A stretch of 64,000 bases of DNA from Escherichia coli (GCF_044324875.1 NZ_CP172185.1); one strand, 5' to 3'; counted from the first letter of the stretch, positions 7,935 to 54,051 are shown. Program-made: numbers and translations. Notes: generated by a model from the sequence alone, not told the origin.

Positions 7935-9236
7935 ATGCTAGTTGTAGAACTCATCATAGTTTTGCTGGCGATCTTCTTGGGCGCCAGATTGGGGGGAATA
8001 GGTATTGGTTTTGCAGGCGGATTGGGGGTGCTGGTTCTTGCCGCTATTGGCGTTAAACCCGGTAACATCCCGTTCGATGTCATTTCCATTATCATGGCGG
8101 TTATCGCCGCTATTTCTGCCATGCAGGTTGCTGGCGGTCTGGACTATCTGGTTCATCAGACAGAAAAGCTGCTGCGCCGTAACCCGAAATACATCACGAT
8201 CCTCGCACCGATCGTGACCTATTTCCTGACAATCTTTGCTGGTACTGGCAACATCTCTCTGGCGACACTGCCAGTTATCGCTGAAGTTGCGAAGGAACAA
8301 GGCGTTAAACCTTGCCGTCCGCTGTCTACTGCAGTGGTATCCGCGCAGATTGCGATCACCGCATCGCCAATCTCAGCAGCAGTGGTTTACATGTCTTCCG
8401 TGATGGAAGGTCATGGCATCAGCTACCTCCATCTGCTCTCCGTGGTCATCCCGTCCACCCTGCTGGCGGTTCTGGTGATGTCCTTCCTGGTCACTATGCT
8501 GTTCAACTCCAAACTCTCTGACGATCCGATTTATCGCAAGCGTCTGGAAGAAGGCCTGGTTGAACTGCGCGGTGAAAAGCAGATTGAAATCAAATCCGGT
8601 GCAAAAACGTCCGTCTGGCTATTCCTGCTGGGCGTAGTTGGCGTGGTTATCTATGCAATCATCAACAGCCCAAGCATGGGTCTGGTTGAAAAACCGCTGA
8701 TGAACACCACCAACGCAATCCTGATCATCATGCTCAGCGTTGCAACTCTGACCACCGTTATCTGTAAAGTCGATACCGACAACATCCTCAACTCCAGCAC
8801 CTTCAAAGCAGGTATGAGCGCCTGTATTTGTATCCTGGGTGTTGCGTGGCTGGGCGATACTTTCGTTTCCAACAACATCGACTGGATCAAAGATACCGCT
8901 GGTGAAGTGATTCAGGGTCATCCGTGGCTGCTGGCCGTCATCTTCTTCTTTGCTTCTGCTCTGCTGTACTCTCAGGCTGCAACCGCAAAAGCACTGATGC
9001 CGATGGCTCTGGCACTGAACGTTTCTCCGCTGACCGCTGTTGCTTCTTTCGCTGCGGTGTCTGGTCTGTTCATTCTGCCGACCTACCCGACGCTGGTTGC
9101 TGCGGTACAGATGGATGACACGGGTACTACCCGTATCGGTAAATTCGTCTTCAACCATCCGTTCTTCATCCCGGGTACTCTGGGTGTTGCCCTGGCCGTT
9201 TGCTTCGGCTTCGTGCTGGGTAGCTTCATGCTGTAA
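7935..9236 (+). CDS. dcuA: Anaerobic C4-dicarboxylate transporter DcuA
   Basis: 433 aa polytopic membrane protein; directly downstream of aspA as in E. coli. Confidence 0.9.
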   Translation: MLVVELIIVLLAIFLGARLGGIGIGFAGGLGVLVLAAIGVKPGNIPFDVISIIMAVIAAISAMQVAGGLDYLVHQTEKLLRRNPKYITILAPIVTYFLTIFAGTGNISLATLPVIAEVAKEQGVKPCRPLSTAVVSAQIAITASPISAAVVYMSSVMEGHGISYLHLLSVVIPSTLLAVLVMSFLVTMLFNSKLSDDPIYRKRLEEGLVELRGEKQIEIKSGAKTSVWLFLLGVVGVVIYAIINSPSMGLVEKPLMNTTNAILIIMLSVATLTTVICKVDTDNILNSSTFKAGMSACICILGVAWLGDTFVSNNIDWIKDTAGEVIQGHPWLLAVIFFFASALLYSQAATAKALMPMALALNVSPLTAVASFAAVSGLFILPTYPTLVAAVQMDDTGTTRIGKFVFNHPFFIPGTLGVALAVCFGFVLGSFML

Positions 9237-9244
9237 TGACCAAT

Positions 9245-9271
9245 CGCGGGGCGTTCACGCCCCGCTTTCTT
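9245..9271 (+). terminator. Intrinsic terminator after dcuA
   Basis: GCGGGGCG-ttca-CGCCCCGC hairpin followed by TTTCTTT. Confidence 0.55.
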
Positions 9272-9351
9272 TCCCGCCGACTAACATCCTTCCCCCGTCC
9301 GTTGTATAGTGACCTCTCTCTTGCGGTTCCATCTGTTCTTGCGAGGTGTTT

Positions 9352-9690
9352 ATGCTTGATGAAAAAAGTTCGAATACCGCGTCTGTCGTGGTGCTATGTA
9401 CGGCACCGGATGAAGCGACAGCCCAGGATTTAGCCGCCAAAGTGCTGGCGGAAAAACTGGCGGCCTGCGCGACCTTGATCCCCGGCGCTACCTCTCTCTA
9501 TTACTGGGAAGGTAAGCTGGAGCAAGAATACGAAGTGCAGATGATTTTAAAAACTACCGTATCTCTCCAGCAGGCACTGCTGGAATGCCTGAAGTCTCAT
9601 CATCCATATCAAACCCCGGAACTTCTGGTTTTACCTGTTACACACGGAGACACAGATTACCTCTCATGGCTCAACGCATCTTTACGCTGA
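9352..9690 (+). CDS. cutA: Divalent-cation tolerance protein CutA
   Basis: ORF 9346..9690; [55 protein letters not shown]; overlaps dsbD start. Confidence 0.85.
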
Positions 9691-11363
9691 TCCTGCTACT
9701 TTGCAGCACTTCCGTTTTTGCCGGATTATTCGACGCGCCGGGACGTTCACAATTTGTCCCCGCGGATCAAGCCTTTGCTTTTGATTTTCAGCAAAACCAA
9801 CATGACCTGAATCTGACCTGGCAGATCAAAGACGGTTACTACCTCTACCGTAAACAGATCCGCATTACGCCGGAACACGCGAAAATTGCCGACGTGCAGC
9901 TGCCGCAAGGCGTCTGGCATGAAGATGAGTTTTACGGCAAAAGCGAGATTTACCGCGATCGGCTGACGCTTCCCGTAGCCATCAACCAGGCGAGTGCGGG
10001 AGCGACGTTAACTGTCACCTACCAGGGCTGTGCTGATGCCGGTTTCTGTTATCCGCCAGAAACCAAAACCGTTCCGTTAAGCGAAGTGGTCGCCAACAAC
10101 GAAGCGTCACAGCCTGTGTCTGTTCCACAGCAAGAGCAGTCCACCGCGCAATTGCCCTTTTCCGCGCTCTGGGCGTTGTTGATCGGTATTGGTATCGCCT
10201 TTACGCCATGCGTGCTGCCAATGTACCCACTGATTTCTGGCATCGTGCTGGGTGGTAAACAGCGGCTCTCCACTGCCAGAGCATTGTTGCTGACCTTTAT
10301 TTATGTGCAGGGGATGGCGCTGACTTACACGGCACTGGGTCTGGTGGTTGCCGCCGCAGGGTTACAGTTCCAGGCGGCGCTACAGCACCCATACGTACTC
10401 ATTGGCCTCGCTATCGTCTTTACCTTGCTGGCGATGTCAATGTTTGGCTTGTTTACTCTGCAACTCCCCTCTTCGCTGCAAACACGTCTCACGCTGATGA
10501 GCAATCGCCAACAGGGCGGCTCACCTGGCGGTGTGTTTGTTATGGGGGCGATTGCCGGACTGATCTGTTCACCATGCACCACCGCACCGCTTAGCGCGAT
10601 TCTGCTGTATATCGCCCAAAGCGGGAACATGTTGCTGGGGGGCGGCACGCTTTATCTCTATGCGTTGGGCATGGGCCTGCCGCTGATGCTAATAACCGTC
10701 TTTGGTAACCGCCTGCTGCCGAAAAGCGGCCCGTGGATGGAACAAGTCAAAACCGCGTTTGGTTTTGTGATCCTCGCACTGCCGGTCTTCCTGCTGGAGC
10801 GAGTGATTGGTGATATATGGGGATTACGCTTGTGGTCGGCGCTTGGTGTCGCATTCTTTGGCTGGGCCTTTATCACCAGCCTACAGGCCAAACGCGGCTG
10901 GATGCGCGTGGTGCAAATAATCCTGCTGGCAGCAGCATTGGTTAGCGTGCGCCCACTTCAGGATTGGGCATTTGGTGCGACGCATACCGCGCAAACTCAG
11001 ACGCATCTCAACTTTACACAAATCAAAACGGTAGATGAGTTAAATCAGGCGCTCGTTGAAGCCAAAGGCAAACCGGTGATGTTAGATCTCTATGCCGACT
11101 GGTGCGTCGCCTGTAAAGAGTTTGAGAAATACACCTTCAGCGACCCGCAGGTGCAAAAAGCGTTAGCAGACACGGTATTACTTCAGGCCAACGTCACTGC
11201 CAACGACGCACAAGATGTGGCGCTGTTAAAGCATCTTAATGTCCTTGGCCTACCGACAATTCTCTTTTTTGACGGACAAGGCCAGGAGCATCCACAAGCA
11301 CGCGTCACGGGCTTTATGGATGCTGAAACCTTCAGCGCACATTTGCGCGATCGCCAACCGTGA
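9666..11363 (+). CDS. dsbD: Thiol:disulfide interchange protein DsbD
   Basis: ORF 9585..11363, start at [19 protein letters not shown] (signal peptide); central TM domain with Cys pairs; C-terminal thioredoxin-like CVAC motif. Confidence 0.9.
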
Positions 11364-11375
11364 ACGACACTTGCA

Positions 11376-11975
11376 GTGGGAAAGACGGAGGAAAATAGCG
11401 TGCAACGTGAAGATGTACTGGGAGAAGCCCTGAAATTATTAGAATTACAAGGGATTGCCAACACCACGCTGGAGATGGTTGCTGAACGTGTGGATTATCC
11501 ACTGGACGAGCTGCGCCGCTTCTGGCCAGACAAAGAGGCAATCCTCTACGATGCGCTGCGTTATCTTAGCCAACAGATAGATGTCTGGCGTCGTCAGCTG
11601 ATGCTGGACGAAACGCAAACCGCCGAACAAAAGCTGCTGGCACGTTATCAGGCGTTATCGGAGTGCGTTAAAAACAACCGCTATCCGGGCTGTCTGTTTA
11701 TCGCTGCCTGTACGTTTTATCCCGATCCTGGCCACCCTATTCATCAACTGGCCGATCAGCAAAAAAGCGCGGCCTACGATTTCACCCACGAACTGTTAAC
11801 CACGCTGGAAGTTGACGATCCGGCGATGGTAGCAAAGCAGATGGAACTGGTGCTGGAAGGCTGTTTAAGCCGAATGCTGGTGAATCGCAGCCAGGCGGAT
11901 GTCGACACCGCACATCGGCTGGCAGAAGATATCCTGCGCTTCGCTCGCTGCCGCCAGGGTGGCGCACTGACCTGA
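11376..11975 (+). CDS. yjdC: TetR-family transcriptional regulator YjdC
   Basis: N-terminal HTH-like segment ([36 protein letters not shown]); last core gene before tRNA-Phe; true start may be the internal GTG at ~11400. Confidence 0.7.
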
Positions 11976-12081
11976 CAGAAACACAGAAAAGAAGCGATTT
12001 GCCGCAATCTTAAGCAGTTGAATCGCTTTTACTGAAATTAGGTTGACGAGATGTGCAGATTACGGTTTAATGCGCCCCGTT

Positions 12082-12157
12082 GCCCGGATAGCTCAGTCGG
12101 TAGAGCAGGGGATTGAAAATCCCCGTGTCCTTGGTTCGATTCCGAGTCCGGGCACCA
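12082..12157 (+). tRNA. pheU: tRNA-Phe (anticodon GAA)
   Basis: GCCCGGATAGCTCAGTCGGTAGAGCAGGGGATTGAAAATCCCCGTGTCCTTGGTTCGATTCCGAGTCCGGGCACCA; cloverleaf with GAA anticodon loop; pheU assigned from yjdC neighbourhood (sequence identical to pheV). Confidence 0.95.
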
Positions 12158-12168
12158 AATTCATATAA

Positions 12169-12195
12169 ACGGACCTCCACGGAGGTCCGTTTTTC
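12169..12195 (+). terminator. Hairpin plus T-run after tRNA-Phe
   Basis: GGACCTCCAC/GGAGGTCC inverted repeat followed by TTTTT. Confidence 0.5.
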
Positions 12196-12354
12196 GTTTC
12201 AGGACGCCACGATTTAAGCGTCCTGCCGCCAAATCAATTCTACCGAACTCAACCAGACTCCCCCCACATCAACCCCATTGTGTGGGTATAATTGCGGGTA
12301 TACCCCAGTTCGACAGAATTTGTACCCTCTTTAACGCATTCAGAAGGCTGAACT

Positions 12355-13617
12355 ATGGCACTGACTGACGCAAAAATCCGGGCTGCAAAGCACACTGACA
12401 AGGCTTATAAACTCACTGACGGGGCTGGCATGTTCCTGCTGGTACATCCTAATGGTTCCCGTTACTGGCGTCTCCGTTATCGCATTCTGGGTAAGGAGAA
12501 AACTCTGGCACTTGGTGTATACCCGGAGGTTTCTCTCTCCGAAGCTCGTACAAAACGGGATGAGGCCCGAAAACTGATTTCGGAGGGGATTGACCCTTGC
12601 GAACAGAAAAGAGCTAAAAAAGTAGTCCCTGATTTACAACTCTCTTTTGAACATATTGCACGACGCTGGCATGCCAGTAATAAACAATGGGCACAATCAC
12701 ACAGCGATAAGGTACTCAAAAGCCTCGAAACACACGTTTTCCCCTTTATCGGCAACCGGAACATCACAACACTCAATACCCCGGACCTGCTTATCCCTGT
12801 TCGTGCTGCAGAAGCTAAACAAATTTATGAAATCGCCAGTCGTCTGCAGCAAAGAATATCTGCTGTAATGCGTTATGCCGTACAGTCTGGCATCATCAGA
12901 TATAATCCTGCTCTGGATATGGCTGGCGCATTGACCTCTGTAAAACGACAGCATCGCCCCGCTCTTGATCTTTCACGTCTGCCTGAACTTCTGTCGCGTA
13001 TTAACAGTTATAAAGGTCAGCCTGTCACCCGGCTTGCTGTTATGCTGAATTTACTGGTTTTTATTCGCTCCAGTGAACTCAGATATGCCCGCTGGGCTGA
13101 AATTGATATTGACAATTCAATGTGGACTATTCCAGCCGAACGCAAACCTCTGCCAGGGGTAAAATTCTCACACCGGGGCTCCAAGATGCGAACACCACAT
13201 CTTGTGCCACTCAGCAAACAGGCTGTAGCCATACTGACAGAACTTCAGACATGGGCTGGTGAAAATGGTCTGATCTTTACGGGAGCACATGACCCGCGTA
13301 AACCAATCAGTGAAAATACCGTAAATAAGGCCCTCAGAGTGATGGGGTATGACACAACCAAGGAAGTCTGTGGCCATGGATTCCGGGCGATGGCGTGCAG
13401 TGCATTGATTGAATCAGGTTTGTGGTCCCGCGATGCTGTGGAACGTCAGATGAGCCATCAGGAGCGTAATGGTGTACGTGCTGCGTATATCCATAAAGCA
13501 GAACATCTGGAAGAACGTCGACTGATGCTACAGTGGTGGGCAGATTTTCTGGATGCGAACAGAGATAAGGGTATCAGCCCGTTTGAATATGCAAAGATTA
13601 ACAATCCATTAAAATAG
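12355..13617 (+). CDS. int: P4-type tyrosine integrase (island integrase adjacent to tRNA-Phe)
   Basis: 420 aa; MALTDAKIRAAKHTDKAYKLTDGAGMFLLVHPNGSRYWRLRYRILGKEKTLALGVYPEVSLSEARTKRDEARKL typical of P4-like integrase N-terminus; C-terminal catalytic region with HGFRA; located ~200 bp after tRNA. Confidence 0.9.
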   Translation: MALTDAKIRAAKHTDKAYKLTDGAGMFLLVHPNGSRYWRLRYRILGKEKTLALGVYPEVSLSEARTKRDEARKLISEGIDPCEQKRAKKVVPDLQLSFEHIARRWHASNKQWAQSHSDKVLKSLETHVFPFIGNRNITTLNTPDLLIPVRAAEAKQIYEIASRLQQRISAVMRYAVQSGIIRYNPALDMAGALTSVKRQHRPALDLSRLPELLSRINSYKGQPVTRLAVMLNLLVFIRSSELRYARWAEIDIDNSMWTIPAERKPLPGVKFSHRGSKMRTPHLVPLSKQAVAILTELQTWAGENGLIFTGAHDPRKPISENTVNKALRVMGYDTTKEVCGHGFRAMACSALIESGLWSRDAVERQMSHQERNGVRAAYIHKAEHLEERRLMLQWWADFLDANRDKGISPFEYAKINNPLK

Positions 13618-43032: not shown

Positions 43033-45003
43033 TTACCACTGATAACGGGTATAAAGACTGACAGTTCGGCCTGAAAGCGGCACACCTTTGCCATTCATGG
43101 CAAGCTTGTTGAAGGCATTATCCAGAGTTACTGACGCCTCAAAGCCTTTAACACTTACAGGCTTATAAGACAGTGAAAAGGAATGTATGGCATAGCCAGC
43201 CTGATAGGAGTCGCCTTTTTTCACATGCGTGGCTGATGCTGAAAGTTCAGCACGCCATCCGGCATAAACGCCTCTATGACCAACAGGTATGCTGATGTCA
43301 CTGATAAGTGTGTCAGGATTGCCGGAGCCCAGCCATTCCCTGCTGCTGGCATCCATACTTTCCGTCCGGTTATAAGAAAGCACCCAGTCAACATAATCAG
43401 ACTGGTAATTTCCCTGCATATCCCATCCCCAGATACGGGCCCGGGATACATTATAAGAATAAGAACGCATCCGTTTCATATCCACGCGTGTGGCAATATA
43501 GTTTCTGGCATCCGTTCCGAAATATCCGCCTTTTAACTGCAGCCGGTCATTGTCTGTAAGCAGGCCATCCAGTTGAATACCTGCGCCAATCTCACGGGTG
43601 ATGTTATTTTCTGGTTTCAGATTAAGGTTAGGAACCCAGTAATTGGGTTTACCCTTGCGGTAAAAATGTACATCATCCCTGTACATTTCTGCCATTGTGG
43701 GCGCTCGGAATGCAGAGGATATGGAGCCGTACATCATCAGCCAGTCTGTCGGTGAGACTGAAATCGCCGCCCTTGGGGACAGGCGTTCGGCTTTCAGTTC
43801 TCCGGCACGGGGATTGAAGCTCTTGTACCGGTCATAGCGGGAACCGACGATAATGTTAACAGGGTAGCTTTTCATTGTCATTTCATCCTGGAAATACAAC
43901 GATGTAAAGTCAATATTTCCTTCCGGATATAGTGTGGCAGAGCCTTCTGGCTTCTGCTGCTGACGGTAATATTCAGCGCCATAACTTAACTGATGGGCTC
44001 CCGGAAAAATCAGAGTATGACTCCTGTTGACAACATTAACACCGGAGGTTCTGTTGTTTCTCCATTCTGCCGTTTTGTTGTGACCGTTTGTCTTGATAGT
44101 GATATCACTGAGATATAACGTTGACTGTACATTGATGAGGCTGTTATCCACAGGAGCGTACTGGTACCAGAACTGTACGTCATTTTGTACTGTTTTTCTG
44201 TCACGCAGGCCGCTGTCACCATGTGTCTGAGTGGGATTGCCCGGTTCAGTGGTGTTATTCCGGTAGAGACGCAAGCTGGCACCTGCTTTGTTACTGTCTG
44301 TTATACCGACAGAGCCTTTCGCAAACAGGGCTGCAGGTTTTTCCTTGTTAGGTGCGCGCTCACCATCACTTTGATAGATATTACCTCTTTTACGCATAAT
44401 GACAGAAAGGAGCGCATCTGTTTTTCCGGTTTTACCGAACCAGGTGAGCCCCGAGCCTGTGCTGTGGTCACCACTGGCAATATTTCCCCACAGACTTAAA
44501 CCGTTTGTCTCTCCGGGGGGAAGGAAATCTGCTGCATCGGCAGTTCTGAAGTCCACTACACCTCCCAGCCCGCCACTGCCGTACAGACTGGAGTTTGGCC
44601 CGCGGACAACTTCGATACGTTTGACAAGAGCCGGATCCAGATAAGTGCCACTGCTTTTTGCCATGTCACTAAGTTGGCGGACGCCGTCAACAAGAACAAG
44701 TACCCCGCTTTTGTCATAGCCGCGTAGATTAAAGGTCTGCCCATTGGTCCGTCCTGCACCAGTCTGGCTGAGACCGGCAACACCTTTCAGCATGCCGGCC
44801 GATGTAACCGCATTCTGACTCCACGGTGTGTCATTCGTGACGACACTGACCATCGACGGCGTTTCAAATACCGTGTTCTGATTTCCTGTCGCGACAATGG
44901 TGATTGTATCTTTAGCCATAGAAGAATGACTGGTCGCTGCCTGTAGTCCCACCGGGACTATAATTAATGTACAAATGACAGTTCTGATTACATTCATATA
45001 CAT
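43033..45003 (-). CDS. TonB-dependent outer-membrane receptor
   Basis: 656 aa; signal peptide; plug-domain TonB-box-like region DTITIVATGNQ; C-terminal ...TRYQW terminal aromatic. Confidence 0.8.
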   Translation of the reverse strand: MYMNVIRTVICTLIIVPVGLQAATSHSSMAKDTITIVATGNQNTVFETPSMVSVVTNDTPWSQNAVTSAGMLKGVAGLSQTGAGRTNGQTFNLRGYDKSGVLVLVDGVRQLSDMAKSSGTYLDPALVKRIEVVRGPNSSLYGSGGLGGVVDFRTADAADFLPPGETNGLSLWGNIASGDHSTGSGLTWFGKTGKTDALLSVIMRKRGNIYQSDGERAPNKEKPAALFAKGSVGITDSNKAGASLRLYRNNTTEPGNPTQTHGDSGLRDRKTVQNDVQFWYQYAPVDNSLINVQSTLYLSDITIKTNGHNKTAEWRNNRTSGVNVVNRSHTLIFPGAHQLSYGAEYYRQQQKPEGSATLYPEGNIDFTSLYFQDEMTMKSYPVNIIVGSRYDRYKSFNPRAGELKAERLSPRAAISVSPTDWLMMYGSISSAFRAPTMAEMYRDDVHFYRKGKPNYWVPNLNLKPENNITREIGAGIQLDGLLTDNDRLQLKGGYFGTDARNYIATRVDMKRMRSYSYNVSRARIWGWDMQGNYQSDYVDWVLSYNRTESMDASSREWLGSGNPDTLISDISIPVGHRGVYAGWRAELSASATHVKKGDSYQAGYAIHSFSLSYKPVSVKGFEASVTLDNAFNKLAMNGKGVPLSGRTVSLYTRYQW

Positions 45004-45129
45004 TCATATACATCCGAAAACATATGTCGGTATTAAAATGTTATAACATAACATTTTATTTATGCAACTCTGATTATGTAGCGTTCAGTGATGAACTGTT
45101 AATAATATTCTGTCGATCCGCTAAGTGTC

Positions 45130-45778
45130 AGTGTATGCGGTAAGCCTGCCCTTGAGTCACTGTTTGGCAACTGCTACATCTAAGGTGACGTTATCCGCTG
45201 ACATCGATATTCCCGTGGTGAGAGATAACCTAACGCACTATGCGGGTGGTTCTCATTGTAATTCTCGAACGCCTATGCAAGGTTATGCAATGCCGTTATT
45301 ACATTCGGTTTCTGTATGAACGCAATGTAGTCTTCCTTCATCGTTTTCACTAACCTTTCTGCCATTCCATTACTCTGAGAGCTGCTGATTGCCGTTGTGC
45401 AGGGCTCCAGATCCAACTCTCTGGCGAACTGCCGTGTTTCATGCGCTCTATACGCTGAACCGTTATCTGTCAACCACCGGATGGACTGTTCCGGTACTTT
45501 ATCGCCAAAGAGTTTTTCTATCGCTCCTAACATCACATCCTGCACTGTCGCTTTATTGTAACCTCCCGTATTGGATGCCCAGTCGATAGCTTCACGATCG
45601 CAACAGTCCAGAGCGAACGTAACCCGGACTTTTTCGCCATCATCGCAACCGAACTCAAAGCCATCAGAACATCAACGCTGGTCGCTTTCCTTACCGATAT
45701 TCGGCCTTTATGTTCCCGCTGCGGTCGTGATGGTTTGTCATGTAACAACAGGATATTTTCGCTCATTATCCGGTAAAC
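45130..45778 (-). mobile_element. IS2-like (IS3-family) orfB remnant, separated from its orfA part by IS66 copy 2
   Basis: ...[76 protein letters not shown]... parallels IS2 InsD; frame breaks present. Confidence 0.6.
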
Positions 45779-45809
45779 GGTAAGCGTCAACGGAGCACCG
45801 TATTGACGC

Positions 45810-47423
45810 TTATTTATTGGTGAGTACTACGTTCCATGGCAGGAGTTCATCAACTCGGTTGGAAGGCCATTCCGGCAGTACGCTCAGGATATGGCGCAGA
45901 TACGCTTCCGGATCGATACCGTTCAGACGGCAGGTGCCGATCAGCCCGTACAACAGTGCTCCACGCTCGCCGCCGTGATCGCTGCCAAAGAACATAAAGT
46001 TTTTCTTTCCGAGACAGACTGCACGAAGCGCTCTTTCCGCAGCATTATTATCCGCCTCCGCCAGACCGTCATCACTGTAATAACAGAGGGCATCCCACTG
46101 ATTCAGTACATAGCTGAACGCTTCGCCCAGTCTGGATTTTTTCGACAGCGTACCATTCTTCTCCACCATCCATTCATGCAGCGACGTCAGTAACACTTTG
46201 CTTCGCTGCTGCCTGACGGCAAGACGCTCTGACTCCGCTAATCCCCGTATTTCATCCTCGATGGCGTACAGTTCACTGATTCGCTTCAGGGCTTCTTCTG
46301 CCGTCGCACTTTTGCTGCTGATGTATACATCGTGGATTTTTCGCCGGGCATGGGCCCAGCACGCAACTTCTGTCAGTGCACCACCTTCACGTTCTGCACT
46401 GAACAACCTGTCGTAACCTGTGAACGCATCCGCCTGCAGGATACCCCGGAAGGGGCGGAGGTGTTGCTCCGGGTGTTTCCCCTGCCGGTTCGGCGAGTAC
46501 GCGAACCAGACCGCTGGAGGAGATGACGAACCCACATTGCGATCATCCCGGACATACGTCCAGATACGCCCTGTTTTCGCCTTTTTCTGACCCGGTGCCA
46601 GTACCTTTACCGGTGTGTCATCAGTGTGAACCTTGCGGGTGTTCATTACATAACGGTACAGGGCATCATTCACCGGTGTCATTAACTGGCAGCACGCGTC
46701 AACCCAGTTGGAGAGTAAGGCCCGGCTCAGTTCGACACCCTGGCGGGCAAAGATTTCACTCTGACGATACAGTGGCAGATGTTCGCAGTATTTTCCCGTT
46801 AACACGCGGGCAAGTAATCCGGGGCCCGCGATACCACGCTCTATCGGGCGGGACGACGCCGGTGCTTCAACAATACAGTCACATTTTGTACAGGCTTTTT
46901 TTACCCGTTCTGTGCGGATCACTTTCAGGGCACTGCTCACCAGTTCCAGCTGTTCAGCGCTGACTTCCCCCAGATAATCCAGCTCACCGCCACACTCCGG
47001 GCAACAGCTTTCTTCTGGCTCCAGGCGGTGTATTTCACGGGGAAGGTGTGCCGGTAACGGACGACGATGGCGCGACTGTCGCAACTGGCGGGGAACCTGA
47101 GGATCGTCTTCCCGCCCACTGTAACGATCGCTGTCCTGTTCACGTTGTTTCAGCAGAGCCTCAGCCAGTTCAACTTCACGACGCAGTTTTTCAGAACGGG
47201 GACCGAACAGCATCCGGAGCAGTTTTTCTATCTGAGCCCGCAGATGTTCTATTTCCCGTTCATCTTCTTCGATCTTTTCTTCGGCACGTGTCAGTGCAGA
47301 GCGCAGGAAGGCTTCCCTCTCTTCAACCAGACTCAGTTGCTGGTCTTTCTGACGGAGGGCTTCAGCCTGCTCAGAGAGCAATCTTTCCAGCTCTGCGATG
47401 CGAATGAGGTATTTCTGACTCAT
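45810..47423 (-). CDS. tnpC: IS66-family transposase TnpC (copy 2)
   Basis: 537 aa; colinear with copy 1 TnpC but diverged. Confidence 0.85.
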   Translation of the reverse strand: MSQKYLIRIAELERLLSEQAEALRQKDQQLSLVEEREAFLRSALTRAEEKIEEDEREIEHLRAQIEKLLRMLFGPRSEKLRREVELAEALLKQREQDSDRYSGREDDPQVPRQLRQSRHRRPLPAHLPREIHRLEPEESCCPECGGELDYLGEVSAEQLELVSSALKVIRTERVKKACTKCDCIVEAPASSRPIERGIAGPGLLARVLTGKYCEHLPLYRQSEIFARQGVELSRALLSNWVDACCQLMTPVNDALYRYVMNTRKVHTDDTPVKVLAPGQKKAKTGRIWTYVRDDRNVGSSSPPAVWFAYSPNRQGKHPEQHLRPFRGILQADAFTGYDRLFSAEREGGALTEVACWAHARRKIHDVYISSKSATAEEALKRISELYAIEDEIRGLAESERLAVRQQRSKVLLTSLHEWMVEKNGTLSKKSRLGEAFSYVLNQWDALCYYSDDGLAEADNNAAERALRAVCLGKKNFMFFGSDHGGERGALLYGLIGTCRLNGIDPEAYLRHILSVLPEWPSNRVDELLPWNVVLTNK

Positions 47424-47453
47424 GACCGTTTTTATAATGCGGTCAGGAGTTTT

Positions 47454-47804
47454 TTACAACATTGTCAGTGAGTTACGGCTGGATGTTTTTGGCTGACGCC
47501 AGTCCAGCTTATCGAGGAGCATTGCCAGTTGCGAGCGGGTAATGGATACCTTGCCGTCACGTACCGCAGGCCAGATAAACTGGCCTTCCTCCAGGCGTTT
47601 GGTGAACAGGCACAGACCATCAGCATCAGCCCAAAGAATTTTGACGGTGTCACCCCGTCGGCCACGGAAGATAAACAGGTGACCGGAGAAGGGATTATCA
47701 TTCAGCACATGTTGTACCTGTTCTCCCAGTCCGTTGAAGGATTTACGCATATCGGTAACGCCGGCAACGAGCCAGATACGGGTACCTGATGGGAGTGAGA
47801 TCAT
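47454..47804 (-). CDS. tnpB: IS66 Orf2 (TnpB, copy 2)
   Basis: 116 aa; MISLPSGTRIWLVAGVTDMRKSFNGLGEQVQ. Confidence 0.85.
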   Translation of the reverse strand: MISLPSGTRIWLVAGVTDMRKSFNGLGEQVQHVLNDNPFSGHLFIFRGRRGDTVKILWADADGLCLFTKRLEEGQFIWPAVRDGKVSITRSQLAMLLDKLDWRQPKTSSRNSLTML

Positions 47805-48226
47805 CTTCCCCTCCCGGTCAGTTCACGGATCAACACCGTGAGCAGCTCTGGCGATGGATTTTCCAGCGTCATGTTACCGTGACGGAATTCCACCTTGCAG
47901 GAACTGGCACTGACTCTGGTCTGAGTGGAAGTGGATAAAGACGGCGCAATGGCCGCCACAGGTTCTTTCTGCTCATCCGGCGTTATTTCTACAGGTAATA
48001 ATTCAACGCCAGTGTCAGAAGAGGTCGTTACCGGAAGACGCCGCGAAACACGCCCTTCGTTCTGCCAGAGCCTGAGCCATTTGAAAATAACATTATCATT
48101 GACGCCATTTTCACGTGCAATCTGTGCAACACAAGCTCCAGGTTGTGATGCCAGTTCCACCATACGAAGTTTGAATTCATTCGAATAGTTTTTACGAGGT
48201 TCTTTTCGCCAGTCCTGTAATTCCAT
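47801..48226 (-). CDS. tnpA: IS66 Orf1 (TnpA, copy 2)
   Basis: 141 aa; overlaps tnpB start. Confidence 0.8.
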   Translation of the reverse strand: MELQDWRKEPRKNYSNEFKLRMVELASQPGACVAQIARENGVNDNVIFKWLRLWQNEGRVSRRLPVTTSSDTGVELLPVEITPDEQKEPVAAIAPSLSTSTQTRVSASSCKVEFRHGNMTLENPSPELLTVLIRELTGRGR

Positions 48227-48419
48227 ACTTAGATGTCCGTCTATATCAGATGGGCGTCTAAGTTACCAATTCTCGTCTGATGGCTACATACGGCGGTCAG
48301 TTTACGCTTACGGTAAACGCGCTTTGCATTCACTAACGGTAGTCCTTCATTTAGGGACTGCCGCCTGAGTATCGCCCAGAACACGGCTTACCGGGGCTAT
48401 TCCTTGTCCGAAGGTAACA

Positions 48420-48700
48420 AGGGCACATGCGCTATCCATTTTCGCGATTGCGCATACTCCACCACTTCTTTGAGGATCTAAACTTCCATGGTTTTTTACC
48501 CAGCAAGAGCTGTAACTCTTTTATTTGTTTTATAGCGGCAGGCAGTTCTGAGGCAGGAACGACACCCTCTCCTGAAGCAACAGCAGTGAGACTTCCTTCC
48601 AGAGATTGTTTTTCCACTTAAACAACAGGCAGGGCTGAATACAACGCAAACGCGCCACATGTGACACCGCCATGCCAGGCTCCATTGTCTGCTGAATAAT
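48420..48700 (-). mobile_element. IS2-like orfA remnant (upstream half of the element split by IS66 copy 2)
   Basis: ...[36 protein letters not shown]... parallels IS2 InsC. Confidence 0.55.
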
Positions 48701-49896
48701 GCCAATTTTTTCCTGAGGAGTTTTACGTTTACGAAGCTACAGCCCCGGCAAAGTTCCAGTCATCTCAAAATTAGAACCAGTGTCAGACATATATCCAAGC
48801 CTGTCTCTTATTTTAAGATACATCCACTATCTGGCGTTTCAAGGGGCTGGTCCAGCTACAAATATTATTGAAAGAAATTTTTATGAAAACGAAGCTTTTT
48901 ACGATTTCTATCGGCATTGATGTAATATAGAAGAGTTATATAAATTATTCAAATCAAATTTTCTATTGAATATTTTCATTCACAGAGTGAGAAAGATGTA
49001 AAATAAAAATACAGGCTCATATATTATTACTTAACCTTACATGGATATCCTGAAATGACATTAATTATTAAGATAATAACGTTTTCATCGGTAGTAGTAG
49101 AAATAAACAAAATTTTAATTTCAAAAACTGCTTGTTTCTCGTAGTGAGGTACTTGTCTTTACTGATTCGGGTAACAGGAAAACATTTAAAATCATTCTGT
49201 TGCGCTCTTTCTGAGAGGCTGATTGCAAAATGGCATCTGAATCGATCGCAGTTGTATGACTCAGCGAGTAAGGCCAGGGAGGTGTTACCCACGAAAATAT
49301 GTACGGCCCAGAACGCGCTGGAACTCTTTTGATGCTCCAGCAAGAACTTAACCGAATGCCATTGGTACGCTGCCCCACAGAAAATTCCGTCACTAATGGC
49401 GGTAGCCGACAGATTCACATGGCGTTACCGCAGTAAACCAAGATGGATCTTGATTGCGTCCTCAACAGACAACATATCTGCTTTGGACAACGAGCCAATA
49501 TGTGTTTTGAGACAGGACTTATCCGCCGCCATAATCTGCTCTACAATCGCTTTGCTGCTCTGACACCTACGGTCACAACAGCCTCACTTGGATACACTCG
49601 CTCTGTGTTACTGGTCAGAGGAACGACGACTACTCGAGCGAGGTTCCTGTTTGCTGCGTCATTGCTCACGATCACTGCCGGACATGTCTTGCGGATTTCA
49701 CTGTCAACAGCAGGATCAAATTCAATCCACCACGTCTCACCTGTGCCGTCACTGCTCTGTCATCTTTCTAACACTTTACTGTCTAACACATGTAATAAAA
49801 AAGTTATTTTTCTGCAATTCGGGCATGATATTTAATCCCACGAGCATGAAACGTGTGAATTCGCTCATCAGGTACAACAAGCAAGAGAGATAAACG

Positions 49897-51213
49897 ATGA
49901 AACCGTTACATTATACAGCTTCAGCACTGGTGCTCGGACTGACGTTAATGGGGAATGCACAGGCAGTGACGACCATTCCGTTCTGGCACTCTATGGAAGG
50001 GGAACTGGGTAAAGAGGTGAATTCTCTGGTCCAACGTTTTAACGCCGAAAACCCGGATTACAAAATTATACCGACTTATAAAGGCAACTACGAAGAGAGT
50101 TTAAGTGCGGGGATCGCAGCATTTCGTACCGGTAACGCTCCGGCTATTTTGCAGGTTTATGAAGTTGGCACCGCCACCATGATGGCGTCGAAAGCCATTA
50201 AACCGGTGTATGACGTGTTTAAAGAGGCGGGGATTAACTTTGATGAGTCGCAGTTTGTGCCGACGGTTTCAGGCTACTACTCCGACAGCAAAACGGGACA
50301 CTTACTCTCCCAGCCGTTCAACAGCTCGACTCCTGTTCTCTATTACAACAAAGATGCTTTCAAGAAAGCAGGATTAGACCCGGAACAGCCGCCGAAAACC
50401 TGGCAGGATCTGGCGGACTATGCCGCGAAACTGAAAGCCTCCGGTATGAAGTGCGGCTACGCCAGCGGCTGGCAGGGCTGGATCCAACTGGAAAACTTTA
50501 GCGCCTGGAACGGTCTGCCGTTTGCCAGCAAAAACAACGGCTTTGACGGCACAGATGCGGTGCTGGAGTTCAACAAGCCGGAGCAGGTGAAACACATCGC
50601 CATGCTCGAAGAGATGAACAAGAAAGGCGATTTCAGCTACGTCGGGCGTAAGGATGAATCCACCGAGAAGTTCTATAACGGTGATTGCGCAATGACGACT
50701 GCCTCTTCTGGTTCTCTTGCCAGCATTCGCGAGTACGCCAAATTCAACTACGGCGTAGGCATGATGCCTTACGACGCTGACGCGAAAGATGCACCACAAA
50801 ACGCCATTATCGGCGGAGCCAGCCTGTGGGTGATGCAGGGCAAAGATAAAGAAACGTATACCGGCGTGGCGAAGTTCCTCGACTTCCTCGCGAAGCCAGA
50901 AAATGCTGCCGAGTGGCATCAGAAAACCGGTTATCTGCCAATCACCAAAGCGGCGTATGACCTGACCCGTGAGCAGGGCTTTTATGAGAAAAACCCAGGG
51001 GCGGATATCGCGACACGTCAGATGCTGAACAAACCGTCGTTACCGTTCACCAAAGGACTACGTCTGGGCAACATGCCGCAGATCAGAGCGATTGTGGATG
51101 AAGAGCTTGAGAGCGTGTGGACCGGTAAGAAGACGCCACAGCAGGCGCTGGATACCGCCGTTGAGCGTGGGAATCAGTTACTACGCCGCTTTGAGAAATC
51201 GACGAAGTCTTAA
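49897..51213 (+). CDS. sn-glycerol-3-phosphate-type ABC transporter periplasmic binding protein (UgpB-like), orphan
   Basis: 438 aa; signal peptide [23 protein letters not shown]; close UgpB-like sequence; no adjacent permease or ATPase genes. Confidence 0.75.
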
Positions 51214-51289
51214 CCAGTGTAATGTCGGATACGTTTCGCCTATCTGAGCTAACATCGCGTGTAGGCCGATGTGATTGACATCTTCCTCC

Positions 51290-52707: not shown

Positions 52708-54051
52708 ATGCACAACTCCAAAATCCGGCTGGCTATACTGGTTGGCTGCATGGCTCTGAGCGCCAACCTGTGGGCCAAAGCGCAGCCGGTGCAGGCAACG
52801 CTGGCCGGGCATGCAATTCTGCCGGCAAAATCCGCTGTTTCAACACCGAAGGATGCGCCGGGCGATTTGCAACAGAGCGGCAAATACACCAGCGGCAAAC
52901 GCGTCACCGAGCTGGGCAGCGTGGCGGGCAAATCCGCAGAACGCCTGACAGGACTCAGCCTGCCGATCAATGGTCAGCCGTTGCAGGGCCACTCAGGTAT
53001 CAAACACATGCCCGACGGTACCTATTGGGTGCTGACTGACAATGGCTTCGGCAGCAAAGCCAACTCCCCGGACGCCATGCTGTACCTCAACCAATACAAG
53101 ATAGATTTCAAAGACGGCTCGGTAGTACCGATGAAGACGCTGTTCCTGCATGATCCGGATAAAAAGGTGCCGTTCCACATCATCAACGAGAGCACCGAAC
53201 TACGCTATCTGACCGGCAGCGATTTTGATCCGGAAAGCTTCCAGTTTTCCGACGATGCCTTATGGATCGGTGATGAGTTCGGTCCTTACCTGATCAAGAC
53301 CGACCTGAACGGCAAGGTGCTGGCGGTGTTCGACACAGAAGTGGACGGTAAGGTGGTTAAATCGCCGGACAACCCGACGCTGACTCTACCTAGCGCTCCG
53401 GACGGTAAGCTGAACTTCCAGGTGGCGCGTTCCAAAGGCTTTGAAGGCATGGCCATCTCGCCGGACGGCAGTAAGCTGTATCCGCTGCTGGAAGGGGCAT
53501 TGTGGGACGGTGAGCAGTTCGAGAACGTTGACGGAAAACGCTACCTGCGTGTGCTGGAGTTCGATGCCAAACAGCAGGCCTGGACTGGTCGCAGCTGGCA
53601 GTACGTGCTGGAAGACAACCAGAACGCCATCGGCGACTTCAATATGATAGATGATACCCACGGACTGGTGATCGAGCGTGATAACGGCGAAGGCACGGCG
53701 GATAAAGCCTGCGTCGCCGGCGCGCCGACCAACAACTGCTTCAGTCAAGTAGCCAGGTTCAAACGGGTGTATAAAATTGCTTTCTCGGACACTAACGTCG
53801 GAAAACCTGTCGAAAAACTGGGCTATATTGACCTGATGAAGATTCAGGATCCGAACAAGCTGGCACGCAAGCCGCTGAACGACGGTGTGCTGACCTTCCC
53901 GTTCTTCACCATCGAGAACGTGGATGTGGTTGACACTAACCACATCATCGTAGGCAACGATAATAACTTCCCGTTTTCCTCCAGCCGCTGGCCTAATATG
54001 GCGGATGACAACGAGTTTATTCTACTGGATGTGAAGGATTTTCTGAAGTAG
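52708..54051 (+). CDS. Secreted phytase-like / esterase-like-activity-of-phytase family protein
   Basis: 447 aa; signal peptide; motifs WVLTDNGFG and SKGFEGMAISPDGSKLY typical of this beta-propeller family; family call unverified. Confidence 0.45.
   Translation: MHNSKIRLAILVGCMALSANLWAKAQPVQATLAGHAILPAKSAVSTPKDAPGDLQQSGKYTSGKRVTELGSVAGKSAERLTGLSLPINGQPLQGHSGIKHMPDGTYWVLTDNGFGSKANSPDAMLYLNQYKIDFKDGSVVPMKTLFLHDPDKKVPFHIINESTELRYLTGSDFDPESFQFSDDALWIGDEFGPYLIKTDLNGKVLAVFDTEVDGKVVKSPDNPTLTLPSAPDGKLNFQVARSKGFEGMAISPDGSKLYPLLEGALWDGEQFENVDGKRYLRVLEFDAKQQAWTGRSWQYVLEDNQNAIGDFNMIDDTHGLVIERDNGEGTADKACVAGAPTNNCFSQVARFKRVYKIAFSDTNVGKPVEKLGYIDLMKIQDPNKLARKPLNDGVLTFPFFTIENVDVVDTNHIIVGNDNNFPFSSSRWPNMADDNEFILLDVKDFLK

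Follow-up and report, generated by a model that had tools for sequence, protein, structure and literature searches.

Mobile-element scars and a captured promoter upstream of an orphan ugpB paralogue in a pheU-associated genomic island of Escherichia coli

The 1197-bp tract at positions 48700-49896 is, in our reading, a mosaic of mobile-element scars in a pheU-associated genomic island, without a function as a unit, and we give this reading a probability of about 0.93. The tract is not one feature; it consists of the scars of four mobile elements together with one captured promoter. From left to right these are the end of an IS2-group element, the 3' part of an IS4-family element with a short IS21-family relic inside it, a PemK/MazF toxin pseudogene, and the promoter of an orphan ugpB paralogue (ugpB'). 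All positions refer to the window, i.e. the whole 64-kb stretch of E. coli DNA that was analysed.

Setting and composition of the tract

In the window, dcuA and dsbD (identified by Pfam) precede a tRNA-Phe gene at 12082-12157, and a P4-type integrase gene (12355-13617) comes next. A tRNA-Phe gene followed by a P4-type integrase is the pheU position, and the tract therefore lies approximately 37 kb inside a pheU-linked genomic island. This is a chromosomal E. coli island of the APEC/ExPEC type. The 1351 bases around the tract match chromosomal loci with 99.8-100% identity in about 150-190 of 5,426 complete E. coli genomes. The tract itself is at least 99% identical in about 150-190 genomes, which reflects recent spread of the island and does not by itself argue against constraint. 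The carriers include BEN2908, APEC O2-211 and F11, and many of them are avian or extraintestinal pathogenic strains. Strain LH50-c has the overall arrangement closest to that of the window. In DNA searches of the complete E. coli genomes, conservation of the AT-rich core of the tract was not found outside the island lineage.

The GC content of the tract is 40.7%, compared to 50.7% for the 64-kb window. Low GC is restricted to about 48861-49219, where it is 27.3% over 359 bp, with 23.2% at 48861-49067. Elsewhere the values are 43.5% (48700-48860), 50.5% (49254-49364), 55% (49365-49424) and 49.2% (49425-49741). Segments of 300 bp having less than 33% GC are found at only three places in the 64 kb and the core is one of these, which makes it a genuine compositional outlier. 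The preliminary description had called the entire tract strongly AT-rich; this holds for the core, approximately one third of the tract, and fails for the remainder. The homopolymeric runs mentioned in the same description are not enriched, as the tract has 7 runs of at least 5 nucleotides against 4.5±2.1 in shuffled sequences, and 2 runs of at least 6 against 1.2±1.1. A repeat search gave short matches only, at chance level.

The earlier view that the tract holds no convincing open reading frame is right insofar as the tract lacks an intact gene, yet pseudogene or insertion sequence (IS) DNA can be recognised in about 800 of the 1197 bases. Homology was assigned to all but 60 bases. The proposed borders of IS remnants are found on the left side, formed there by an IS2-group pseudo-IS that ISEc23 has divided in two, and not on the right side, where ugpB' is the border and an IS110 pseudogene is located only beyond ugpB'. 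Apart from the question of borders, the AT-rich core is an IS remnant itself.

Insertion sequence remnants

The left edge of the tract (48700-48860, minus strand) belongs to a decayed IS2-group element of the IS3 family and comprises its left end with the first codons, as identified by blastn, alignment of the inverted repeats and the PGAP annotation. The whole element covers approximately 45132-48860 and is split by ISEc23. Its terminal inverted repeat starts with TGTAGCTGGACCAGCCCCTTGA at 48860, the 5' untranslated part extends to 48764, directly before the orfA start at 48763, and codon 9 of orfA is an in-frame TAG. The nucleotide identity to IS2 orfA is 70% (blastn, E 4e-33), and 48764-48860 aligns with the IS2 left terminal region (IRL) as well as with the element's own end at 45132, where TGTATGCGGTAAGCCTGCCCTTGA was compared with the repeat at 48860. 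Elements of the IS2 group of the IS3 family have an orfA/orfB transposase and terminal inverted repeats ending TG..CA, and the assignment is made here on orfA and on the two ends, TGTAGCTGG.. (48860) and TGTATGCGG.. (45132), which are alike and resemble the IS2 IRL. The PGAP calls for this element are frameshifted IS3-family/DDE pseudogenes, and at identical loci 48310-48763 is called as a frameshifted, truncated transposase.

ISEc23 belongs to the IS66 family and sits within the IS2-group element, outside the tract, thereby explaining the IS-remnant border on the left. Its genes tnpC (45810-47423), tnpB (47454-47804) and tnpA (47801-48226) are all on the minus strand and were identified from the open reading frames and the LH50-c annotation. 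The ISEc23 insertion is absent from AZ159 and BEN2908.

The AT-rich core is the larger part of an IS4-family (subgroup-IS4-like) 3'-terminal remnant on the plus strand (48861-49364), corresponding to element coordinates of about 897-1385 out of 1385 bp. The GC content of this remnant is 33% overall and 27% up to 49219. Its origin was found by a protein search in which all six-frame pieces were concatenated. This search retrieved 434-aa IS4-family transposases, one of which is annotated by NCBI in Photorhabdus tasmaniensis. When taken singly, the six-frame pieces are too short and disrupted to be detected in this way, and none of them matched Pfam or NCBIfam. When E. coli genomes and plasmids were searched with the DNA of the core, the hits were limited to the locus itself, the toxin gene and a 35-bp IS21 end.

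Two of the related transposases (P0006 and P0005) match PF01609 (DDE_Tnp_1) with an E-value of 1.5e-17 and NF033592 with 170-171 bits, where the cut-off is 115, as expected of the DDE transposase which IS4-family elements encode in a single ORF. The corresponding intact elements (L016 and L017) are 1385 bp long and have perfect 18-bp terminal repeats, CAATGGCATTCGGTTAAG, with target duplications of 10 bp (TCTCCTTCAA and TCCGGCGTAG). Partial relatives were found on plasmids of Xenorhabdus bovienii and Arsenophonus apicola. With relatives in the AT-rich Morganellaceae (Photorhabdus, Xenorhabdus and Arsenophonus), the remnant derives from an AT-rich IS of Morganellaceae type. The transposase genes of the intact relatives have 35-36% GC, and the AT-richness of the core is attributed to inheritance from such an AT-rich IS.

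Using blastn, window positions 48855-49364 align to element positions 897-1383 with 77.9% identity (E 1.4e-118, 515 columns), and the remnant has 75-78% nucleotide identity to the intact copies over the last approximately 490 nucleotides. Using tblastn, the window matches transposase residues of about 298-434 out of 434 with E-values from 1e-36 to 4e-39. The transposase frame contains three in-frame stops and three frame changes in the tblastn alignment. Identity to the intact IS4-family copies drops from about 80% to about 20% exactly at 48855. The tblastn alignment could be extended to the left as far as 48735, and this extension was rejected because the nucleotide identity there is 13-40%, which is random, compared to about 80% to the right of 48855, and because the stretch aligns with the IS2 left end. 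Six bases at the junction (GCTACA, 48855-48860) are common to the IS2-group element and the IS4-family element, and within these the exact point is ambiguous.

The IS4-family motif Y-(2)-R-(3)-E-(6)-K (PMC2266710) was located at 48903-48947 on the plus strand from the tblastn alignment. The residues at this site are Y R H * C N I E E L Y K L F K in the window and Y-H-L/Y-R-W-N-I-E-E-L-Y-K-L-S-K in the relatives. The spacing is retained together with the Y, E and K residues, and the R codon has become TGA. The motif is thus recognisable, and judged by its codons it would be inactivated.

The right terminal inverted repeat, CTTAACCGAATGCCATTG, was found at 49347-49364 (plus strand) from a three-way alignment with the intact copies. 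It is the reverse complement of CAATGGCATTCGGTTAAG and is identical to both ends of the two intact elements. Ends of the IS4 family carry 5'-CA, and the end pattern of subgroup IS4 is -AATR--------WTW (PMC2266710, Table 1). The repeat fits this subgroup pattern, and the stop codon of the transposase gene (49349-49351) overlaps with it. The window contains no left end of the element. Further pieces of the IS4-family element were searched for in the 64-kb window and none was found, which indicates that the 5' part was lost and not merely displaced. What is left is not a complete, transposition-competent element, the sequence being limited to about 897-1385 of 1385 bp with a broken frame and an IS21 relic inside, and without its left end and target duplication it is unable to transpose. 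None of the 5,426 complete E. coli genomes has an intact copy of the element, and in the RefSeq E. coli records the remnant is left unannotated.

The relic in question is the left terminus of an ISSso4-like IS21-family element (49220-49253, plus strand) of 34-35 bp, the match being 100% over 35 bp. The source sequence, found in pIncHI2-MU3 among other plasmids, is located approximately 200 bp upstream of istA. An IS21-family element has istA and istB between multi-repeat termini, and the relic has no such organisation. Relative to the intact IS4-family copies it is an insertion which replaces about 7 bp of the transposase gene, giving a net gain of 28 bp by which the transposase frame is shifted.

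Other strains have lost the left part of the tract by independent truncations involving IS1 or IS3-family elements. IS1 truncates the tract at 49108 in J31 and Z1323CEC0004, and at 49258 in Z1323CEC0010 and three others. An IS3-family element truncates it at 49473 in AH25, CM2 and 19451123. The truncated strains keep the right part of the tract, with ugpB' and its promoter unchanged, which argues that the core is not a required regulatory part.

The toxin pseudogene and the captured ugpB' promoter

A 60-bp spacer (49365-49424), delimited by its flanking features, separates the end of the IS4-family element from the stop codon of the toxin gene. It gave no match in the searches of plasmid and other DNA and is the sole part of the tract with no assigned homology. 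The spacer presumably represents original DNA located 3' of the toxin gene.

The following stretch (49425-49741, minus strand) is a PemK/MazF-family toxin pseudogene, identified by Pfam and by alignment to plasmid toxins. When corrected for the frame shift, the translation matches PF02452 with an E-value of 5.7e-21 and 75 bits, covering profile positions 3-108 of 109. Compared to the intact antitoxin-toxin pair of pSTEC640_4 (CP061001.1) the identity is 78% at the nucleotide level and 80% at the amino acid level. Near 49565 a single base pair has been deleted, and the resulting frame shift ends in a TAG at 49541-49543. Furthermore, the first three codons, the start, the promoter and the upstream antitoxin gene are all missing; ugp-derived sequence stands in place of the codons, and the position of the antitoxin is occupied by the ugpB promoter. 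A type II toxin-antitoxin system of this kind has a PF02452-type toxin sequence in an intact frame with a start, and an antitoxin gene immediately upstream, and of these hallmarks the window retains the PF02452 sequence only. For lack of antitoxin, promoter and start, and with its frame split, this is a pseudogene; it does not constitute a module for addiction or defence.

PGAP annotates the pseudogene as two fragments, a 'PemK/MazF toxin' of 51 aa (49541-49696) and a 'hypothetical protein' of 35 aa (49425-49532), and both are probably inactive to judge from the disruptions. Every E. coli copy is the same toxin pseudogene, BEN2908 having an extra 6-bp duplication, and no more intact copy was found among the 5,426 complete E. 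coli genomes. A decayed gene was among the explanations originally offered for the tract, and this idea is borne out in two cases: the 3' third of the IS4-family transposase gene on the plus strand (tblastn E 4e-39, blastn E 1e-118) and the toxin pseudogene on the minus strand (80% amino acid identity and the PF02452 match).

The right end of the tract (49742-49896, plus strand) aligns to the K-12 ugpB upstream region and forms the promoter and leader of ugpB'. This gene (49897-51213, plus strand) is an intact paralogue encoding 438 amino acids, 426 of which are identical to K-12 UgpB. The captured block as a whole covers 1533 bp (49736-51268) and is 93.5% identical to K-12 positions 3592482-3590954. 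Of the 398-bp livF-ugpB spacer it contains 161 bp, and this is followed by the whole of ugpB and a further 55 bp past the gene.

Alignments to both parents place the junction between toxin and ugp sequence at the hexamer CTCACC (49736-49741; GGTGAG on the minus strand), which is common to the ugp upstream sequence and to toxin codons 4-5. Homology to the K-12 ugpB upstream region begins at 49736, and homology to the intact toxin stops at GGTGA. As one homology ends and the other starts within a single hexamer, the junction points to illegitimate recombination at a microhomology.

Four Pho-box half-sites with 11-bp phasing were found in the promoter, at 49757 (CTGTCAT), 49768 (CTAACAC), 49779 (CTGTCTA) and 49790 (ATGTAAT). 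The stretch 49757-49796 aligns with the K-12 ugpB promoter, and the first half-site is a perfect CTGTCAT. A Pho box consists of 7-bp direct repeats of the CTGTCAT type which are phased at 11 bp and lie upstream of the -10 element, and ugpB is under PhoB control (PMC4447250); the half-sites have this arrangement. The ugpB' promoter is the only part of the tract expected to be functional and would be PhoB-dependent, as suggested by its alignment and its half-sites.

Alternative readings, history and known relatives

In enterobacteria, H-NS prefers AT-rich, horizontally acquired DNA. The core, with 23-27% GC over 200-360 bp in a window of 50.7% GC, has the composition expected of an H-NS-bound silencing region which would damp neighbouring island genes including ugpB'. 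Such a role is compatible with the origin from an IS relic, on which it would be a passive overlay. However, descent from an AT-rich IS fully accounts for the composition, and the high-affinity motif TCGATAAATT is not enriched, with one site with two mismatches in the tract and 68 sites in the window against 56.7±7.9 expected. The core is also separated from the ugpB' promoter by approximately 530 bp, with DNA of 50% GC in between, and the strains in which IS1 or IS3-family elements have removed the core keep ugpB' and its promoter unchanged. We regard silencing by the core as possible but unlikely. Binding of H-NS as such is plausible from the composition; it would be passive, resulting from the nature of the dead IS, and at best incidental.

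A more elaborate version is that the IS4-family relic has been co-opted and modulates the PhoB-dependent expression of ugpB', either by acting as a nucleation patch for H-NS or by giving rise to antisense or read-through transcripts. If this were true, a phosphate-scavenging gene carried by the island would be regulated in part by IS debris. We consider such co-option very improbable.

The preliminary description also raised the possibility of an unannotated small regulatory RNA. The region is long, it is unannotated in RefSeq records and it contains a few sigma-70-like hexamer pairs, all of which would suit such a gene. Against this, no Rfam match was found in the tract at permissive or gathering thresholds; the nearest weak match (AfaR, 25 bits compared to a gathering threshold of 100, E 0.19) is outside the tract, in the IS2-group element. 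The fold z-scores are -0.37 for the plus strand and +1.40 for the minus strand. Promoter-like sites number 5 against 2.9±1.7 expected and terminator-like sites 2 against 1.0±1.1, both at chance level; no terminator is located in the core, and no promoter-terminator unit is formed there. Hence neither an RNA family nor a combination of promoter, terminator and structure, by which a bacterial small RNA would be recognised, is seen in the tract. Outside this locus the homologues of the core are IS4-family elements only, and the left part is deleted in several strains. The idea of a small RNA was abandoned on these grounds as extremely improbable.

The chance that the 116-aa open reading frame at 49068-49418 (minus strand) is a real unannotated protein-coding gene is practically negligible: it is the longest in the tract, and one public protein collection holds a single 7-member cluster of near-identical predicted proteins, but a search of 5.8 billion proteins matched it to nothing except its own locus (95% identity), it belongs to no Pfam or NCBIfam family, PGAP makes no call for it, and it is chimeric, combining unrelated pieces of DNA, since it lies antisense to the IS4-family transposase remnant and extends across the IS21 relic. 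With homologues at its own locus only, and lying antisense to an IS remnant, it was rejected as a gene.

Returning to the mosaic of scars, the homologies, boundaries, disruptions and strain-to-strain truncations are as described above, and the order of events at the locus is only partly constrained. A plasmid-type antitoxin-toxin module would have been present at the site to begin with, and an IS4-family element would have inserted 60 bp beyond the toxin stop codon. An IS21-family element may then have entered the IS4 transposase gene and later been lost, leaving its terminal 34 bp. The IS2-group element would have arrived after this, and the IS4-family element would have lost its 5' two-thirds to it. 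No target-site duplication was detected when the flanks of the IS2-group element (at 45132 and 48860) were examined for one, and for this reason the mechanism of the deletion is one that we infer. ISEc23 would have inserted into the IS2-group element subsequently, in this lineage only. On the other side, the ugpB segment would have been joined to toxin codon 4 via the 5-6-bp microhomology, thereby removing the antitoxin gene and the toxin start. Finally, point mutations would have eroded both reading frames.

For annotation there is a direct gain, as RefSeq leaves the IS4-family remnant unannotated and splits the toxin pseudogene into two small "proteins". An AT-rich "intergenic" tract of an island can be a dead AT-rich IS from another bacterial lineage. 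A protein-level check for IS should therefore come first, before readings as a small RNA or a dedicated silencing region; the DNA searches missed the remnant in the present case. The GGTGAG microhomology junction is of value as a record of how an orphan ugpB' was captured with only its Pho-box promoter.

The kind of feature described here is already well known and is ordinary genomic-island wreckage, and each part can be compared to a known system. The closest known relatives of the core are the intact copies of subgroup IS4 from P. tasmaniensis (P0006/L016) and from a Logan contig (P0005/L017). The window shares with these the identical 18-bp right repeat, the exact C-terminus of the transposase (MTQRVRPGR..RWNSFDAPART*), the YREK region and a similar AT-richness. 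Unlike the intact copies, the window keeps only the 3' 35% of the element, has a broken frame interrupted by the IS21 relic, and has no left end. The likeness to ISSso4-like IS21 elements is limited to the 34-35 bp of the left terminus; istA, istB and the right end are missing and there is no other similarity.

The toxin pseudogene was compared to the PemK/MazF modules of pSTEC640_4 and of plasmid B of strain C5, which it resembles over the whole toxin (80% amino acid identity) and over the full length of PF02452. In pSTEC640_4, the gene of a 76-aa antitoxin overlaps the start of the 108-aa toxin. In contrast to these plasmid modules, the window has no antitoxin, promoter or start codon, and its frame is split by the 1-bp deletion.

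The K-12 ugpBAECQ operon is the counterpart of the captured block. It differs from the window in that only 161 of the 398 bp of the spacer are kept here, with a toxin pseudogene instead of livF as the upstream neighbour, and in that ugpB' is an orphan which is not followed by ugpAECQ. The likeness to the K-12 promoter lies in the 161 bp before the start codon, which include the tandem Pho-box half-sites and the ribosome-binding region.

The pheU-associated island and its phosphate-related genes

The left boundary of the pheU-associated genomic island is marked, at 7935-13617, by dcuA, dsbD, the tRNA-Phe gene at 12082-12157 and the gene of a P4-type integrase at 12355-13617. Further inside, the orphan ugpB paralogue (ugpB') is adjoined by a phytase-like esterase gene at 52708-54051 (Pfam PF13449, E = 7.5e-61), and the related island of strain LH50-c also carries a glycerophosphodiester phosphodiesterase gene together with a gene of the PhoX family. 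Judged from gene sequences, phosphate scavenging is a theme of the island.

AT-rich stretches and a weak small RNA match

At 44975-45131, an AT-rich stretch with a GC content of 38% was found upstream of a minus-strand gene (43033-45003) for a TonB-dependent receptor. It holds a tandem ACATTCATAT repeat as well as a 12-bp palindrome, ATGTTATAACAT, and could serve as an operator, such as one of the Fur type. When the 64-kb window was scanned in windows of 300 bp, the only spots below 33% GC apart from the AT-rich core (48861-49219) of the tract upstream of ugpB' were 366-748 and 60381-60774.

The Rfam model of the small RNA AfaR gave a weak match at 48232-48353, with 25 bits (E = 0.19) where the gathering score is 100. 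This match is located inside the IS2-group element, adjoining the end of ISEc23, and is most likely due to chance.

Strain variants upstream of ugpB'

Three independent IS-mediated truncations of the tract upstream of ugpB' were found in the loci of J31, Z1323CEC0004, Z1323CEC0010 and AH25, at positions equivalent to 49108 (IS1), 49258 (IS1) and 49473 (IS3 family) of the window. Owing to truncation, ugpB' of Z1323CEC0004 is placed beside gss/yghU/hybG, an arrangement which implies a large IS1-mediated rearrangement. The sole length variant observed among the carriers is a 6-bp tandem duplication, CTGACA, in the PemK/MazF-family toxin pseudogene of BEN2908, at the equivalent of window position ~49552.

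The ugpB' cassette

The second, orphan copy of ugpB is carried on a 1.5-kb cassette (49736-51268, with the coding sequence at 49897-51213), in which a Pho-box promoter is present and ugpAECQ is absent. Intact ugpB' was found in approximately 195 genomes, and its surroundings are all IS debris. This conservation amid debris suggests that the solo binding protein it encodes is maintained by selection. UgpB reportedly moonlights as a periplasmic chaperone that responds to bile. Compared with UgpB of K-12, the product of ugpB' is identical at 426 of 438 amino acids, and the two genes differ by 50 synonymous and 12 non-synonymous codon differences.
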